The notes: a model not told the origin generated them from the sequence alone. A stretch of DNA of 64,000 nt from an uncultured Bacilli bacterium (GCA_934086775.1 CAKOIJ010000001.1:4141-68140), one strand, 5' to 3'; counted from the first letter of the stretch, positions 27,875 through 51,073 are shown. A program made the numbers and translations.

Positions 27875-29380
27875 CTAATTATAAACTATCTCGTAAGGGC
27901 TTTCTGAACTTCCATTTCCTGAAGAATATGGAACTTCTGCCTTAATTGATATAACAGGGCGGACACCATAAGCAGTGGTCACATTGCCGTCGTCTAATCT
28001 ACCCGGATTGCGCGAACCGTAAACACCAAATGAGCCAGCATTAGCACCATTCCAGTAGGTAGGAGACAAAAGCCACCACCATGTACTTCCTGTTATACTT
28101 GAACCAGTACTATTTAAATAATACCATACTGATGGATTGTTAGTCCATGCTAAACCTCCTGCATAACTAACTTCATCTGCTGTCATGAGTCCTATTGGAT
28201 GTGTTAGTTTTGCTTTTGCATTACTTCCTGAAAATGCATCTTCTGGTGTAGTACAATCGTATGTTGGTGTTTTTTTACTTGCTAGTCTACCATATGCCAT
28301 GTAGTTAAATCTTTCACTTCCTGCTGCACTATATGTTCCATTTGCTACATTTCTATCATTACAGTATATCGCTTCTGTACTTAAGTATTTTGTATAACTT
28401 GTTAAGTTATTACTATACCATTTATCTATTACTCCTTTTACTACACTGCTATTTGTATTTTTACGATTATTTTCTAAAGACCCACTTATTCCATACATAT
28501 AACCTACATACATTGAATCATTAGATGTACTATTGAATTTACTTGTACCTATATATCCACTTGTTGTATCAGGACTTGTTCCTGAATACAAAAGTCTAAT
28601 ACTTCCATCATGATTTGTTCTTATTATTCTCCAGTAAAATCCTGCAAATTTTACCCAGTTATTAGTAGGATTCCCTGCAAAGTAATATACATCTTTTGTT
28701 GGTCCTCCTGTTATACTTTCAGTACTCTTAAATAATGTACCAGTTGTATCACTTGTAAATATTGAACTAAATGATGTTCTTGTTCCTCTTGTTTGATTAT
28801 CATTTAGTATTTGCCATCCCAAAGTACCTTCTTCATATTCTCCATGTATATTCTCTGTTCCTTTTTCTATATACAATGAACCACTTAATACTTTACCCAT
28901 ATCTTCACTTTGATCTACTACTAAAGTATCTATATATTTAAATTCTATACTATATGAGTGAGTTTTACCTTTTGCTATTTCTACACTATGGGCTAAAACT
29001 GTATCAGTAGTTGAACTTCTTTTAGGTACATCTTTAAACTCACTCATATTGTATCCACCATCAGTACTAGTTATTTTGTATACTAAATATCCTTTTGTAA
29101 TAAAAGTATTTACTAAATCTTTTATTACTATATTGTATTTATATGTACCATCACTTTCATTCTTTACTGTGAATGTACTTATACCACTTGACCAACCTGG
29201 TACTATTTCTGAACCTGCTATTGTACCTGTACCACTGTTAAATACTATCCTAAGATTAGCACTGTCAACTGAAACTTCTTTTTCTTTTCCAAGTATTTCC
29301 ATTGAAAACCATGCTAAACTAACTGATAATACTATTACTAACAAACTCCCTAATATAATTAATAATTCTTTCTTTTTCAT
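27875..29380 (-). CDS. Secreted TasA/camelysin (M73)-like protein with SipW-cognate-type signal motif (…SLAWFS…), paralogue 1, 501 aa
   Basis: N-terminus MKKKELLIILGSLLVIVLSVSLAWFS. N-terminal domain pattern (VFNSGTGTIAGSEIVPGWS…FTVKNESDGT) resembles TasA/CalY. Paralogous to 33794..35320 including the C-terminus …VRPVISIK…SPYEIVYN. Confidence 0.55.
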   Translation of the reverse strand: MKKKELLIILGSLLVIVLSVSLAWFSMEILGKEKEVSVDSANLRIVFNSGTGTIAGSEIVPGWSSGISTFTVKNESDGTYKYNIVIKDLVNTFITKGYLVYKITSTDGGYNMSEFKDVPKRSSTTDTVLAHSVEIAKGKTHSYSIEFKYIDTLVVDQSEDMGKVLSGSLYIEKGTENIHGEYEEGTLGWQILNDNQTRGTRTSFSSIFTSDTTGTLFKSTESITGGPTKDVYYFAGNPTNNWVKFAGFYWRIIRTNHDGSIRLLYSGTSPDTTSGYIGTSKFNSTSNDSMYVGYMYGISGSLENNRKNTNSSVVKGVIDKWYSNNLTSYTKYLSTEAIYCNDRNVANGTYSAAGSERFNYMAYGRLASKKTPTYDCTTPEDAFSGSNAKAKLTHPIGLMTADEVSYAGGLAWTNNPSVWYYLNSTGSSITGSTWWWLLSPTYWNGANAGSFGVYGSRNPGRLDDGNVTTAYGVRPVISIKAEVPYSSGNGSSESPYEIVYN

Positions 29381-29413
29381 ATAGACTTCCTTTCTTTTTT
29401 AGACACTAAAAAA

Positions 29414-29436
29414 AGATAGATTTAAAAAATCTATCT
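29414..29436 (-). terminator. Leader terminator/attenuator hairpin AGAUAGAUUU-UUUAA-AAAUCUAUCU followed by U7, immediately upstream of the RBS of paralogue 1
   Basis: Perfect 10-bp inverted repeat plus U-run on the minus-strand RNA. Covaries with the copy-2 hairpin. Confidence 0.55.
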
Positions 29437-29467
29437 CATTAAAGCACATGAAAAACCAGAAGGTTTA

Positions 29468-29533
29468 CTAGTTATTAATAATAACCCCCCCCCCTAGTAC
29501 TTTATTTTGTACATATAGGCTGTTGTTTTTCAT
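29468..29533 (-). CDS. Leader peptide uORF (21 aa, MKNNSLYVQNKVLGGGVIINN) containing the poly-G tract
   Basis: SD AAAGGAGA 5 nt upstream of the ATG. Conserved in copy 2 (MKNSNLFVQNKVLGGG…). Confidence 0.45.
   Translation of the reverse strand: MKNNSLYVQNKVLGGGVIINN
29485..29494 (-). repeat. Homopolymeric tract C10 (G10 on the coding strand) inside the leader uORF
   Basis: Seen directly. The only long G/C homopolymers noticed in this roughly 25% GC window are at the equivalent position of both paralogues. Confidence 0.9.
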
Positions 29534-29571
29534 GTTTTTCTCCTTTGTTATTTGTAGCTTCCTACAATAAA

Positions 29572-29628
29572 ATAATACCACAAAAAGTATTAGTTTACAA
29601 GTATTATTTTCTTGTACTTTTTGTGGTA
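29572..29628 (-). promoter_or_regulatory. Sigma-A-like promoter (TTGTAA-17-TATTAT, 29572..29600) embedded in a 14-bp-arm palindrome TACCACAAAAAGTA-N24-TACTTTTTGTGGTA (29576..29628), a candidate operator
   Basis: Seen on the minus strand. Identical arrangement upstream of paralogue 2. Confidence 0.45.
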
Positions 29629-29632
29629 CTAA

Positions 29633-30214
29633 TTATTTCTTCATTATTAATTTAATATTATTTTCTTTAGAAGAATCATTATTTAGTAATTCTTCTTTTC
29701 TAATTTCAAACATTCTTATACTTTTTTCTTTAAGATCATTTATTTCATAAATTATTTCATTTTCTTTAGATATTCTTTTAGTTTTTTCTAGCTCTAATTC
29801 TTTTAAAGTTTTTTCTTTTTCTAACTTAATGTTATTTAAATACTTGCTAAGTTCTTTAACTTTAGAGTCATATTTATGAGCATAAACAAGAGTTAATATA
29901 AATACAAATACATTTACTCCTGATAAAAGAATTGTACCAACTATATTAATAAAACCACCTAAATTTAATGGGATAATTCCAAGTGATAAAACCGAAATAA
30001 TAAGTAAAAGTTTATTAAAACCTTTAATATCTTTTCTTAAATTTAATAGTTTTATATTATTATTTCTTATTTCTTTATCAAGAAGTTCTATTTTATTTTC
30101 AAGTAAAGGCTCATTTTCATTAAAATTCTCTACTATTTTAACATTTCCATACTCATTAACAATTGCAGTTTTATCTTTAGTGACATGCATGTATTCTTTA
30201 TTCATATAACCCAC
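29633..30214 (-). CDS. Hypothetical membrane protein with coiled-coil segments (193 aa)
   Basis: Central TM helices flanked by K/E-rich heptad-like regions. Confidence 0.45.
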   Translation of the reverse strand: MGYMNKEYMHVTKDKTAIVNEYGNVKIVENFNENEPLLENKIELLDKEIRNNNIKLLNLRKDIKGFNKLLLIISVLSLGIIPLNLGGFINIVGTILLSGVNVFVFILTLVYAHKYDSKVKELSKYLNNIKLEKEKTLKELELEKTKRISKENEIIYEINDLKEKSIRMFEIRKEELLNNDSSKENNIKLIMKK

Positions 30215-33774: not shown

Positions 33775-33795
33775 AAGTGCAATTTCTTGCACTTT
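33775..33795 (-). terminator. Intrinsic terminator AAGTGCAA-TTTC-TTGCACTT for paralogue 2 (overlaps its stop codon)
   Basis: Hairpin followed by a U-rich run on the minus strand. Confidence 0.55.
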
Positions 33796-35320
33796 AATTA
33801 TAAACTATTTCGTATGGGTTTTCTGAACTTCCATCTCCCAAAGAATATAGGGCATCTATCTTAATACTGATAACTGGTCGAACAGCATTTTGAGTCCTAG
33901 AAGTATTATATACTAAAGCACCATTATATTCTTCTTTAGCTGGATAATAATTAATACGAGCAAGTGCCGCATAATAATGATGCTCAGAATCACTAAAAAA
34001 ATATCCGCCTGGGGAAATAGTCCACCATACTGTTTTTTTCGAAACAAACTCGCTTTTACTGTTCAAATTAAACCATAAGTATGAGTTCAATAAACTTGTT
34101 CCAGCTTTACCACCTGCATAAGCTATCTCATCAGCTGTCATTAGTCCTATTGGATATGTTAATTTTGCTTCACTATTACTTCCTGAAAATGCATCACTAC
34201 TATCTTCACAATTATATGTTGGATTTCCTGCTCTTAATCTTGTATATACATAGCAGTTAAAAGAACTACTGGCATTATAACTTGGTGCTTTTCTATCATT
34301 ACAATAGACTGCTTCTGTACTTATGTATTTTGTATAACTTGTTAAATTATTACTATACCAGTTATCTATATATGTTTTTATAGTACTATTATTTTCATTT
34401 GTTCTATTGCTTTCAAGACTTCCACTTGTTCCATACATGTATCCCACATACATTGGGTCATCATATGTACTATTGAATGCGCTTTTTCCTATATAACCCT
34501 GAGTTGTATCAGGACTTGTTCCTACATAAAGCATTCTAATACTTCCGTCTGCATTTGTTCTTATTATTCTCCAGTAGTATCCTCCAAATTTAACCCAGTT
34601 GTTAGTAGCATTTCCTGCAAAGTAATACACTATTTCAGGTGTACTTCCTGCTATACTTTCAGTACTTGTATAAAGCGTTCCTGTATTAGTAGAATTAAAT
34701 GTATTTGAAAAGTCACTTCTTACTCCTCTTACTGGATTATCTTCTAGTAATTTATACCCAAGTGTTCCTTCTTTATAATCTCCGTGTAATTTTATTTCAT
34801 TATTATCTATATATAGTGTTCCGGATAGCTCTTTTCCCATATCTATATTTTGATTTTCAGTTTCACTATTTAAATATCTAAACTCTACATTATATGTATG
34901 AGTTTTATTCTTTTCTATATTTATATTATATCCTAGTGTCATATCTGTACTTATACTGCTTTTAGGTACATCTTTGAAGTCACTCATATTGTATCCACCA
35001 TCAGTACTAGTTATTTTATATTGTAAGTATCCTGTTGTTACAAAAGTATTTATTAAATCTTTTATAACTATGTTATATTTATAAGTACCATTACTTTGAT
35101 TTTTAACTGTAAAAGTATTTACTCCGCTACTCCAACCTGGTTCTATTTCTGAACCTGCTATTGTACCACTTCCACTAGCAAAAACTATTTTTAACTCTGC
35201 ACTAGATGTAGATACATTAGAGTTTTTACTATTAATAGTTGTACTAAAATATGCTATTGATACTGATAGTACTACTACTAATAAACTTCCTAATATAATT
35301 AATAATTCTCTCTTTTTCAT
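33794..35320 (-). CDS. Secreted TasA/camelysin (M73)-like protein with SipW-cognate-type signal motif (…SIAYFST…), paralogue 2, 508 aa
   Basis: N-terminus MKKRELLIILGSLLVVVLSVSIAYFS. Collinear similarity to 27875..29380 over the full length. Confidence 0.55.
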   Translation of the reverse strand: MKKRELLIILGSLLVVVLSVSIAYFSTTINSKNSNVSTSSAELKIVFASGSGTIAGSEIEPGWSSGVNTFTVKNQSNGTYKYNIVIKDLINTFVTTGYLQYKITSTDGGYNMSDFKDVPKSSISTDMTLGYNINIEKNKTHTYNVEFRYLNSETENQNIDMGKELSGTLYIDNNEIKLHGDYKEGTLGYKLLEDNPVRGVRSDFSNTFNSTNTGTLYTSTESIAGSTPEIVYYFAGNATNNWVKFGGYYWRIIRTNADGSIRMLYVGTSPDTTQGYIGKSAFNSTYDDPMYVGYMYGTSGSLESNRTNENNSTIKTYIDNWYSNNLTSYTKYISTEAVYCNDRKAPSYNASSSFNCYVYTRLRAGNPTYNCEDSSDAFSGSNSEAKLTYPIGLMTADEIAYAGGKAGTSLLNSYLWFNLNSKSEFVSKKTVWWTISPGGYFFSDSEHHYYAALARINYYPAKEEYNGALVYNTSRTQNAVRPVISIKIDALYSLGDGSSENPYEIVYN

Positions 35321-35343
35321 AATGACTTCCTTTCTAACACGAA

Positions 35344-35372
35344 AAATAGATAGACTAAAAGTCTATCTATTT
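35344..35372 (-). terminator. Leader terminator/attenuator hairpin AAAUAGAUAGAC-UUUUA-GUCUAUCUAUUU followed by U5, upstream of the RBS of paralogue 2
   Basis: 12-bp inverted repeat. Stem-top sequence differs from copy 1 but pairing is preserved. Confidence 0.55.
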
Positions 35373-35461
35373 AATACACATGAAAAACTAGAGTTATTAG
35401 TTGTTAGTAATAACCCCCCCCCCAAGTACTTTATTTTGTACAAATAGGTTGCTGTTTTTCA
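35363..35461 (-). CDS. Leader peptide uORF (32 aa, MKNSNLFVQNKVLGGGLLLTTNNSSFSCVLNR). Its stop lies inside the terminator 5' arm
   Basis: SD AAGGAGA upstream. G9 tract puts the frame one position off relative to copy 1. Confidence 0.45.
35414..35422 (-). repeat. Homopolymeric tract C9 (G9 on the coding strand) inside the leader uORF
   Basis: Seen directly. Confidence 0.9.
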
Positions 35462-35540
35462 TGTTCTTTGTCTCCTTTGTTTTTTTGAAATATATGTACC
35501 ACATTATGTACACTACATTTCTTATATTTTCTTACAATAA

Positions 35541-35597
35541 AATAATACCACAAAAAGTATTAGTTTACAAGTATTATTTTCTTATACTTTTTGTGGT
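35541..35597 (-). promoter_or_regulatory. Sigma-A-like promoter (TTGTAA-17-TATTAT, 35541..35569) embedded in palindrome TACCACAAAAAGTA…TACTTTTTGTGGTA (35545..35597)
   Basis: Sequence identical to the copy-1 promoter/palindrome. Confidence 0.45.
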
Positions 35598-35868
35598 ACT
35601 AATGCGTAGCAATTTTTAAAATTGGTTTTAATAATAAAACTACTTATGATATAGTTCATAAGTTTTTCAAATGGGGGTCAATTAAAAATAAACACCAAAT
35701 CAACTTGATCTGGTGTTTATCAGCACAATACGGACTGAGTGAATACCTAACGAGCAAAAGCTAGGTAATACTCATTTTATTTGTCCTTTAATATTATATG
35801 AAGCATTTCTTCATGTATACATGATATCATTTGTATCAAATAATATCAAGTACTTTATATTGTGCTTA

Positions 35869-36312
35869 TTATTTTAGGATTTTATCTAATTCTTTTAACT
35901 GTGCTTTCATAATTAAATCTACTTTATTTTTATTATCTATTTTTTTAATTAATTCATCATATTTATCTATTTTATTACTAAATTCTTTGTCTTTAATTTT
36001 AATTTTCTTTTTAAAGTTATTACTTTGAACACCATATAAATTAATTAATTTGTCATATACTTCATCACTCTTAGTAATACCTATAAATACTTTAAAAAGT
36101 TCTTCTTCCTCTTTAACAATATAATTGTCATAATTTTTAGTTATTTTATTTACACTATCATAACTTTTATATGCACCGACTTGAAGTATATAGTAGTTTG
36201 GTATAGTCTCATTTTTACTTTTATATTTTTTAAATATTAAAAACGAAAATAAAGAAGTAATTAATATAATAATTAATAAATATTTTTTATTCATAGTAGT
36301 CACCTTTAACAT
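35869..36312 (-). CDS. SPOR-domain-like membrane-anchored protein (147 aa)
   Basis: N-terminal TM, then YYILQVGAYKSYDSVNKI…LFKVFIGI pattern typical of SPOR repeats. Confidence 0.45.
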   Translation of the reverse strand: MLKVTTMNKKYLLIIILITSLFSFLIFKKYKSKNETIPNYYILQVGAYKSYDSVNKITKNYDNYIVKEEEELFKVFIGITKSDEVYDKLINLYGVQSNNFKKKIKIKDKEFSNKIDKYDELIKKIDNKNKVDLIMKAQLKELDKILK

Positions 36313-50720: not shown

Positions 50721-51073
50721 TGGTGGAGCTGACGAAGAGCGACTTCGTGTCCAAAGTATCAACCATACAGACGTGTACAAGTTTAGTTGGTTTATTATTT
50801 CAAAAAATATTATGGAGAGCCAACGTTCCTATATTTTTCTAAGTTTAGTAATAGTTCATTATATAACCTAAACAATTATATAGTATAGTTCACTTTTATA
50901 AGTCCAGACATTACCCTCGTGAACAAAGAATAAGCTGAACCACTTGTTTTTCCTTAATTAGGCAAAAGCAGGTGCGTAATTAAAATCGTTTCCGATTATT
51001 TTTTGTTGCGTTTATAGTACGCCTACTACTTGCATCCATACGTACAACTACTCTGTCGAATCAAAACAGCCCC
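50721..51073 (-). ncRNA. ssrA: Transfer-messenger RNA (tmRNA, SsrA)
   Basis: 5' GGGGCUGUUUUGAUUCGACAG… pairs with 3' …CAGCUCC-ACCA. T-arm ACGAA/GUCGCUC/UUCGU. Internal tag ORF ending …GAUUUUAAUUACGCACCUGCUUUUGCC UAA UUAA (…DFNYAPAFA*). Located in an ORF-free region of locally higher GC. Confidence 0.8.

Follow-up and report, generated by a model that had tools for sequence, protein, structure and literature searches.

A 64,000-nucleotide (nt) stretch of DNA from an uncultured Bacilli bacterium (GCA_934086775.1, CAKOIJ010000001.1:4141-68140), called the window below and containing ∼25% G+C, carries two paralogous genes, copy 1 and copy 2, whose proteins are 60% identical by tblastn and 62% identical in a MAFFT alignment. 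Each gene follows a leader with a hairpin ahead of its Shine-Dalgarno (SD) sequence, and these two leaders, 84% identical column by column, are the subject of this study; the genes around both hairpins all lie on the minus strand. From 5′ to 3′ on that strand, the leader consists of a promoter, an SD, the ATG of a small upstream open reading frame (uORF), GTACAAAATAAAGTAC, a run of ten G residues (G10), GUUUUUCAUGU, the hairpin, a U-run, the main SD AAAGGAAG and the main ATG. The hairpins and the genes behind them are located as follows.

29414..29436, minus strand: copy 1 hairpin (folding, covariation, frame analysis), with 5′ arm AGAUAGAUUU at 29436..29427, loop UUU at 29426..29424 and 3′ arm AAAUCUAUCU at 29423..29414
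29413..29408, minus strand: U6 run after the copy 1 stem, read from the sequence
29393..29386, minus strand: copy 1 main SD AAAGGAAG; SD plus gene span 27875..29393
27875..29380, minus strand: copy 1 main gene, 501 amino acids (aa), from the ORF list
35372..35344, minus strand: copy 2 hairpin, AAAUAGAUAGAC / UUUUA / GUCUAUCUAUUU (folding, terminator scan, covariation)
35346..35342, minus strand: copy 2 U-run, overlapping the stem base; hairpin plus U-run span 35342..35372
35333..35326, minus strand: copy 2 main SD AAAGGAAG; SD plus gene span 33794..35333
33794..35320, minus strand: copy 2 main gene, 508 aa, from the ORF list

Each hairpin is a terminator-like RNA structure. The copy 1 stem consists of 10 perfect pairs, with 29437 and 29413 forming a further G.U pair, and in copy 2 RNAfold adds one U-A pair, for a total of 13 pairs around a 3-nt loop. 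The folding energies were -12.0 kcal/mol for copy 1 and -14.0 kcal/mol for copy 2 (z = -4.77 and -5.23, respectively), and 0 of 200 dinucleotide shuffles folded as well. Both hairpins lie between the SD-preceded uORF (29533..29468; 35462..35397) and the main SD, 14–20 nt 5′ of the latter. A first-pass annotation of this DNA had placed hairpins at 29414..29436 and 35344..35372, before the ribosome-binding sites of both paralogues, and folding confirmed them; the arms and the UUUUA loop that it gave for copy 2 also hold. Its 5-nt loop UUUAA for copy 1 cannot fit into 23 nt, however, and the loop is the 3-nt UUU. The U-runs that it wrote as U7 and U5 are present, but six U residues lie beyond the copy 1 stem, the seventh being the last stem base, and the copy 2 run overlaps its stem, with UU alone beyond the 12-pair stem and U5 if three basal A-U pairs stay open. 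A terminator scan flagged copy 2, and copy 1 failed solely the rule of at least three G-C pairs; the canonical terminators of neighboring genes in the same 25% G+C genome look similar and are likewise G+C-poor. We infer that transcription terminates at these hairpins.

The differences between the two copies are paired: a U-A pair near the stem top becomes C-G, and a G.U pair at the base becomes U-A. The compensatory change that had been claimed for the arms is thus real. It had further been argued that an RNA structure is selected rather than DNA identity, and both folding and covariation across homologous leaders supported this. The homologues came from genome loci and at least 120 metagenome loci, with more than 100 non-identical complete leaders, and fall into four subtypes named A1 (the window type), A2, B and C. 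For covariation, 47 type A and B leaders were used with a structure that we specified. RNAalifold recovered the hairpin in this set, standard pairs filled 95.2% of the pair cells (30–53% when the partners were slid by 1–3 columns), and 4 of 9 hairpin pairs were changed on both sides. The covariation score was 0.207, compared with 0.113 ± 0.007 for shuffled alignments, of which 0 of 500 reached 0.207. Type C leaders keep the same hairpin, and a T5–7 run directly follows it in all 104 leaders measured. The constant half-stems GAUAG and CUAUC are separated by 7–11 nt that nevertheless remain self-complementary, which fits a hairpin and argues against the operator of a dimeric protein; a protein operator was rejected on this variable GATAG/CTATC spacing and on the covariation of the inner bases.

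The variable element of the leader is the G tract inside the uORF. Here "long" denotes the reading frame after the tract that runs on to the hairpin and "short" the two frames that stop before it.

29485..29494, minus strand (C10 on the plus strand): copy 1 G10 tract, inside the uORF
35414..35423, minus strand: copy 2 G10 tract
29468..29546, minus strand: copy 1 uORF, with SD AAAGGAG at 29546..29540, ATG at 29533..29531 and, at G10, the 21-codon product MKNNSLYVQNKVLGGGVIINN ending at TAG 29470..29468; short frame
35397..35478, minus strand: copy 2 uORF, with SD at 35478..35472, ATG at 35462..35460 and, at G10, the product MKNSNLFVQNKVLGGGVITNN ending at TAA 35399..35397; short frame
29433..29431, minus strand: copy 1 long-frame (G9) stop TAG, in the hairpin 5′ arm
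35365..35363, minus strand: copy 2 long-frame (G9) stop TAG, in the hairpin 5′ arm

The leader uORF had been recognized in the first-pass annotation, but the G10 tract inside it, the likely switch, went unmentioned. The two G10 tracts are the sole runs of eight or more G in the window, in which 0.04 such runs are expected by chance. The retention of G10 in a 25% G+C genome and across diverged lineages argues for selection on the tract itself. Over 139 instances, as read from short-read assembly consensus, tract length was G7 in 3, G8 in 29, G9 in 55, G10 in 47 and G11 in 5. Among clusters with near-identical flanks (no more than 3 differences per ∼160 nt), tract length varied in 4 of 7, and two of the three invariant clusters are probably one assembly deposited twice. 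At a locus adjoining rnr, five samples with identical leader flanks had G9, G11, G8, G10 and G8; the 746-aa protein P0072 is identical in four of them, the fifth encodes its close relative P0040, and a gene caller annotated the 33-codon (33-aa) long-frame uORF solely in the G10 sample. Alleles that differ in tract length but are otherwise identical mark a contingency locus. As a separate observation, the tract in frame reads as three successive GGG glycine codons, and GGG makes up 7.4% of glycine codons, or 3.95 per 1000 codons, in the long ORFs of the window; the ribosome could conceivably slow on this run, or ribosome or polymerase could slip on it.

We found exactly one long and two short frames after the tract in 102 of 102 complete leaders. 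The short frames stop 4–23 nt past the tract, and the median distance from the last base of their stop codon to the base of the hairpin is 32 nt. Of 104 leaders, 88 have the long-frame stop within the hairpin, 14 immediately beyond it and 2 at 3–7 nt ahead of it. In the window, the G10 stops lie 31 and 25 nt 5′ of the hairpin in copies 1 and 2, respectively, and with G9 instead the frame in both copies would continue as far as AGA-TAG within the 5′ arm. The stretch after the tract contains a 3-nt indel between the copies, and the relation of stop to hairpin is kept. A ribosome with the 5′-arm TAG in its A site would, from what is generally known of ribosome footprints, cover the 5′ arm and the loop. 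The present frame of 112 elements was long in 49 and short in 63, with both states found within single metagenome-assembled genomes (MAGs).

Only two complete leaders among ∼160 copies (L113 and L174) lack a tract of at least seven G. In L113, GGGGTATGG replaces the tract and fixes the long frame, and the stop codon falls 5 nt inside the 5′ arm of an intact hairpin. In L174, ATGGGATG replaces it and likewise fixes the long frame, and the hairpin has decayed to -2.7 kcal/mol, compared with -7.1 to -10.4 kcal/mol in its relatives. The genes downstream of both are intact (539 and 496 aa). Two of two locked alleles would be in the long frame by chance with a probability of 0.11. The fact that the locked alleles are in the long frame, and that a hairpin disappeared along with the switch, points to the long frame as the ON state.

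A second helix was found in the leaders. In types A and B, a segment S1 (ACAUGAAAAAC) pairs with a segment S2 (GUUUUUCAUGU) located 5–10 nt before the hairpin.

29525..29535, minus strand: copy 1 S1 ACAUGAAAAAC, including the uORF AUG (RNAalifold, pair counts, full-leader minimum free energy (MFE) structure)
29446..29456, minus strand: copy 1 S2 GUUUUUCAUGU, 9 nt 5′ of the hairpin, paired with S1
35454..35464, minus strand: copy 2 S1 (RNAalifold, pair counts, MFE)
35378..35388, minus strand: copy 2 S2 (RNAalifold, pair counts, MFE)

The nine core S1:S2 pairs are unbroken in 47 of 47 sequences; one pair changes from C-G to U-A in 13 of them, with U.G intermediates in 4. S1:S2 stands beside the hairpin in the MFE structures of both full-length window leaders, and its compatibility with the hairpin indicates that it is not an antiterminator. 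Neither RNAalifold nor the single-sequence MFE structures gave a mutually exclusive antiterminator, and no helix in them competes for a hairpin arm. Thus, of the classic attenuator layout that had been proposed, the order of uORF, hairpin and SD is conserved, but there is no antiterminator of the trp/his type and no run of regulatory codons that relates to the genes behind the leaders, whose products are secreted or surface proteins. The 1:2 hairpin of the trp and his leaders is a pause hairpin melted by the ribosome. S1:S2 might likewise be a pause hairpin melted by the long-frame ribosome, or might close the uORF after the pioneer ribosome has left. In type C, the helix AAGUUA:UAACUU encloses the tract instead, and RNAalifold pairs the poly-G with UCUUCU. 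Two further pairings were noted: the U-run at 29408-29413 can pair with an A-run at 29395-29400 before the main SD (alignment columns 187-192/202-207; RNAalifold, mostly U-A), and the U-run or S2 can pair with AUGAAAAAG at the start of the main gene. These may be mere composition or a layer of translational control.

The remaining parts of the leader lie upstream of, or next to, the tract.

29572..29628, minus strand: copy 1 promoter in an inverted repeat (promoter scan, repeat search), with -35 TTGTAA at 29600..29595 and extended -10 TGgTATTAT ending at 29572
35542..35598, minus strand: copy 2 promoter in the same inverted repeat (promoter scan, repeat search), with -35 TTGTAA at 35570..35565 and extended -10 ending at 35542
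29497..29512, minus strand: copy 1 motif GTACAAAATAAAGTAC, 16 nt directly ahead of the tract, encoding VQNKV and invariant or almost invariant among the subtypes
35426-35441, minus strand: copy 2 motif GTACAAAATAAAGTAC, 16 nt just 5′ of the tract

The promoter-like sequence TTGTAA-17-TGgTATTAT sits inside a 53-nt near-perfect inverted repeat with arms GTACCACAAAAAGTA and TACTTTTTGTGGTAC, with the -35 in the loop and the extended -10 overlapping the 3′ arm. This repeat may serve as terminator and promoter at once, or as an operator. Other subtypes have a similar design, in which the terminator-like hairpin of the upstream gene, with a TTGAAA loop, is followed by a T-run and TGATAnnAT. An invertible promoter was rejected: the repeat is a short 53-nt hairpin in one orientation in all ∼160 leader copies. 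No sigma-70-like promoter was predicted between the tract and the main gene by the promoter scan, so main-gene transcripts must cross the hairpin. The poly-G tract was also discarded as a promoter spacer, since no sigma-70-like -35/-10 pair spans or follows it on the minus strand and nearby hexamers match at only 2–3 of 6 positions. The uORF ATG has a strong SD 6–9 nt away in all four subtypes, despite differing surroundings. GTACAAAATAAAGTAC is the best-conserved part of the leader in all subtypes, beyond what the peptide VQNKV needs, and its GUAC:GUAC pairing is lost in some of them. The uORF peptide had no match in Pfam or NCBIfam and a poorly conserved C terminus, and was set aside as a known small protein or a precursor of a ribosomally synthesized, post-translationally modified peptide. 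In Rfam 15, the gathering score returned only a transfer-messenger RNA (tmRNA) within the window and left the leaders unmatched, and permissive E-values gave only chance hairpin matches for the leaders; a known RNA family was dismissed for them, nothing relevant having appeared at either level.

Taken together, we consider on balance that each hairpin probably serves as the terminator in a leader-ORF attenuator that is phase-variable and acts by ribosome occlusion. Transcription would start at a promoter 30–70 nt upstream, and the first feature of the transcript would be the well-initiated small ORF with its poly-G tract. Slipped-strand mispairing during replication would alter the tract between 7 and 11 G and thereby shift the uORF frame. 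In the two short frames, the ribosome would stop early, the hairpin and U-run would form behind RNA polymerase, and transcription would terminate, leaving the gene OFF. In the third frame, the ribosome would cross S2, stop in or just past the hairpin and cover its 5′ arm; the polymerase would then read through, turning the gene ON, and the ribosome would be released close to the main SD. More speculatively, S1:S2 could act as a pause or synchronizing hairpin, or close the uORF in the OFF state. Both window copies, with G10 in the short frame, are predicted to be OFF, and a contraction by 1 nt to G9 is predicted to turn them ON. We infer that ribosome-polymerase coupling decides read-through. 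Since the input would be slipped-strand mutation and not a metabolite, the element would be a phase-variation switch.

We hold as evenly balanced a broader form of this reading: a portable "contingency attenuator" of ∼170 nt, in which poly-G in a leader ORF heritably and reversibly gates ribosome access to an intrinsic terminator, and of which several copies per genome vary surface proteins and an XRE-type regulator combinatorially. As additions to it, S1:S2 may synchronize ribosome and polymerase, and slippage on the G run may make the switch leaky.

Several points weigh against the attenuator as set out above. The window stems are not G+C-rich, having 2 G-C pairs in copy 1 and 3 in copy 2, and the stems of the homologues are A/U-rich with a median stability of about -6.8 kcal/mol and, in most of types B and C, a conserved A.C mismatch; termination may therefore be inefficient. 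Transcription-translation coupling is not universal in Firmicutes-like bacteria. The tract lengths are those of a consensus and not of reads, and long homopolymers can be mis-called. The long frame is seen in 44% of elements, only a modest departure from the 33% that would be expected were frame of no consequence. An open third frame of ∼50 nt occurred in 0.20–0.67 of shuffles and is thus not significant for a single element; as proof the shuffle test was rejected, and it was kept as a consistency argument only. What gives the third-frame argument weight is that such a frame is found in every subtype despite the many indels between them, and the diverged subtypes are not independent of each other. 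Finally, the role of S1:S2 is unexplained, and type C has a different enclosing helix. Two observations concern the mismatch itself: it (GGAUAGA versus UCUACCC; alignment columns 161/182; L010, L014 and L060, for example) about halves stem stability, and loci with a helix-turn-helix (HTH) gene downstream mostly have a perfect UCUAUCC arm.

The frame of the uORF might instead act on translation, by coupling, re-initiation or RNA remodeling, with termination at the hairpin playing a minor part. Long-frame ribosomes would then melt the hairpin together with S2, which would otherwise pair with AUGAAAAAG, and be released beside the main SD. The long-frame stop, which is 35–60 nt away from the main AUG and in many leaders of type C immediately precedes the SD, is consistent with this account, as are the weakness of many hairpins and the ability of the U-run and S2 to pair, if the 5′ arm is not free, with the region of the main start. 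We nevertheless regard it as unlikely, because the main SD is strong and unsequestered in the predicted structures and the near-invariant U5–7 after the stem, a signature of intrinsic terminators, would be superfluous for coupling. Polarity offers another explanation, in which short-frame stops expose naked RNA to Rho and the hairpin is secondary. Both uORF-dependent Rho attenuation and Rho-based phase variation are documented in other systems (PMC12360218), but this leader is extremely C-poor and leaves ∼60 nt between the short stops and the main SD, a poor loading site, and the conserved hairpin and U-run would be left without explanation, which makes Rho an improbable agent here.

The remaining alternatives give the frame or the tract a different meaning. 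If the G tract were a length-dependent site for a C/U-rich small RNA (sRNA) or a protein acting in trans, or paired with CCUUCU/UCUUCU in cis, the frame would be irrelevant. Pairing of the poly-G with UCUUCU by RNAalifold in type C, and a similar pairing in copy 1, agree with such binding, and G repeats in 5′ untranslated regions that are targeted by sRNAs are known (cited in PMC12721329). This proposal is about as improbable as Rho, since type B has no C/U run after the tract, and the conserved SD and ATG, the one long and two short frames and the long-frame locked alleles go unexplained by it. A conventional attenuator that senses ribosome stalling, for example at three rare GGG codons, with the tract differences as neutral change or assembly noise, would have the expected layout of uORF, terminator and SD, and GGG is indeed only 7.4% of the glycine codons of the window. 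It is very improbable, however: no alternative antiterminator structure was found in the leaders, the tract changes by non-multiples of three even where the flanks are identical, the downstream genes encode surface proteins and not glycine metabolism, and the maintenance of G10 at 25% G+C implies selection on the tract. Equally little credence can be given to the small ORF as an independent small-protein gene with its own terminator, in which the tract toggles the peptide and the main gene is expressed otherwise. A 33-aa long-frame product was annotated by the gene caller in one sample, and a stop inside a terminator stem is common in compact genomes, but the C-terminal peptide is poorly conserved (FSCALMR, FSCAIKWIE, SFHMSKYNG and others) and the nucleotides keep their base pairing, the peptide has no Pfam or NCBIfam match, and no promoter is predicted in the 14–30 nt between the hairpin and the main gene.

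The phase-variable attenuator, which we favor, would serve a varied set of genes. Behind the cassette lie genes for at least five secreted proteins of 500–930 aa that differ in architecture, most of which have a common C-terminal repeat domain (weak DUF6273 match) and differing N-terminal parts. The cassette also precedes a 79–81 aa XRE-type HTH regulator that stands at the head of a surface-protein operon and is directly followed by a secreted protein of 752–824 aa. Secreted and surface proteins, together with a regulator, are the usual clients of phase variation, and a phase-variable XRE regulator could extend the switch to a regulon. The regulator (HTH_19/HTH_3) is the first gene behind the leader in many type C loci, such as the following.

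L123, 5005-5286(-) and 2740-4998(-): XRE-type HTH gene locus
L075, 2648-2935(-) and 190-2664(-): XRE-type HTH gene locus
L131, 11914-12156(+): XRE-type HTH gene locus

Among the other genes, L098 54-2420(-) encodes a 789-aa protein with an ALK/LTK glycine-rich domain (PF12810, E = 3e-31) ahead of the C-terminal domain. At L074 1762-3158, 3′ of a 90%-identical paralogue, an ORF with a MutS_I domain and a reverse-transcriptase (RVT_1) ORF were found, a pair that may be a retron-like or group II intron element.

In the search for the protein family, 7801 of 8000 scored candidates had E ≤1e-5, and all were unnamed. A scan of species-representative genomes gave 72 loci in uncultured gut MAGs, labeled among others Tenericutes UMGS1658, Clostridium sp. 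CAG:628, Bacillota UBA11492 and Hadza "Bacilli," and these hosts are possibly of the RF39 lineage. Up to ∼15 family copies occur per genome, and many contigs break within these genes; to a large extent the breaks in these assemblies are caused by the surface-protein family. Among loci L001-L072, many contigs, such as the USFF01 contigs of UMGS1658, end inside the genes or at the leader. Where the upstream region was present, a G8–G11 tract often lay ∼105–120 nt before the start codon, and other paralogues had plain promoters instead of a poly-G leader. A DNA-pattern scan of metagenome contigs gave at least 120 loci, mostly labeled as human-gut assemblies, and profile searches gave the ∼160 leader copies, all in the same orientation. 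The leaders from gut metagenomes and uncultured genomes bear the labels Bacilli, Tenericutes, Bacillota and Clostridium sp. CAG:628. Viral contigs contained no match, and a phage origin was rejected on that ground. The most abundant relatives, P0015 (814 aa) and P0111 (813 aa), were seen in many samples without a poly-G leader; they were dropped as a same-locus comparison, having no such leader, and are useful only as a sign that the cassette is optional. At L195-L202, ∼200 nt 5′ of the 813–814 aa gene, a divergent 88-aa HTH gene and a plain promoter were seen.

In the window itself, the neighbors of the two genes by Pfam are the housekeeping genes rpmF, yceD, dxs, rnhB, a PrsA-like peptidyl-prolyl isomerase gene, rimP and nusA. 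The copy 1 protein, for which no exact record was found, has an N-terminal membrane helix, a β-sandwich and a C-terminal region with a weak DUF6273 match, according to Pfam and an AlphaFold2 model with a mean pLDDT of 63. Foldseek against the PDB with this model gave no meaningful match (TM score ≤0.16), and a weak likeness of the N-terminal β-sandwich to TasA-like bundling pili is only a lead. The ORFs just 5′ of the leaders, 29633-30214(-) of 193 aa and 35869-36312(-) of 147 aa, had no Pfam or NCBIfam match. The tmRNA gene lies at 50721-51073 on the minus strand (Rfam RF00023, 119 bits); ARAGORN called no tRNA or tmRNA in the window.

If the attenuator works as proposed, it would add to the known modes of phase variation (promoter-spacer repeats, in-gene frameshifts, DNA inversion and methylation) one in which a repeat that shifts the frame of a leader ORF toggles a transcription attenuator, providing ON/OFF control of any gene behind the cassette with coding sequence and promoter untouched. 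A large unannotated surface-protein family of abundant and as yet uncultured bacteria of the human gut would be under stochastic ON/OFF control, with a bearing on immune evasion, phage resistance and strain persistence, and its expression state would be readable from metagenomes through tract length. The leaders would also offer a naturally occurring test of transcription-translation coupling in a low-G+C, Firmicutes-related lineage, in which coupling is debated, and so compact and gene-independent a cassette would be a candidate for a stochastic switch in synthetic systems.

A repeat inside a leader ORF that controls a terminator was not found described in the full-text literature, in which subscription journals are largely uncovered, and with no Rfam family either we class the element as a new combination of two known principles. 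Like the trp, his and leu leaders, it has an SD-preceded leader ORF, a hairpin and a U-run before the structural gene, and S1:S2 resembles the 1:2 pause hairpin; unlike them, it has no antiterminator, no cognate codons (GGG occurs three times, from the tract only) and no biosynthetic operon behind it. Clostridioides difficile cwpV is phase-variable through leader termination. The fim (Escherichia coli) and flgB phase switches, which also act by leader termination, use DNA inversion (PMC12360218). The likeness to cwpV, flgB and fim is that a heritable ON/OFF state in a 5′ leader decides termination before a gene for a surface structure; those systems, however, consist of invertible DNA with site-specific recombinases, whereas neither an invertible segment nor a recombinase takes part here: the leader has a single orientation, and the inverted repeat at the promoter is a 53-nt hairpin. 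Variable repeats in a transcribed 5′ leader that modulate expression after initiation are also found in Helicobacter pylori, as the G repeat of tlpB targeted by RepG, and in Haemophilus influenzae, as the heptamer repeats of hmw1 with RNase III (PMC12721329), but those repeats are untranslated, work through an sRNA or RNase III and are graded, whereas the tract here would be translated and would follow a predicted three-phase frame rule.

The first of the two principles is that of contingency loci, such as the poly-G phase variation described for Campylobacter jejuni (bioRxiv 10.1101/2022.11.09.515450) and the loci of Neisseria and Haemophilus. As in these, tract length (G8–11) varies among otherwise identical alleles, the targets are surface proteins and multigene families, and mixed states occur in cells and populations; the homopolymer of about seven or more that characterizes such loci is present as G10 twice in the window and as G7–11 in 139 instances. 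The known tracts differ in lying within the coding region of the regulated gene, which they truncate, or in a promoter spacer, whereas here the regulated protein is untouched and it is the frame of another ORF, in the leader, that the tract changes; the sole evident task of that ORF is to put a ribosome on the terminator or keep it off. The second principle is that of the E. coli pyrBI and rph-pyrE attenuators, in which the upstream frame runs to or through the attenuator and a close ribosome blocks formation of the hairpin. In K-12, the rph-1 frameshift stops translation early before the attenuator, and pyrE expression is lower. Jensen 1993 is cited, as reference 42, in PMC3203608, and the pyrE attenuator is mentioned there too. 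The leaders described here share the upstream ORF that enters or passes the hairpin, in exactly one frame in 102 of 102 leaders (the window copies themselves being short-frame), and their short frames follow the same logic of an early stop as rph-1. In E. coli, however, the signal is UTP-dependent pausing of the polymerase, and rph-1 is a one-off laboratory mutation, whereas here a maintained hypermutable tract of G7–11 would set the frame in a heritable, stochastic and reversible manner, and the cassette is reused before many unrelated surface-protein genes.

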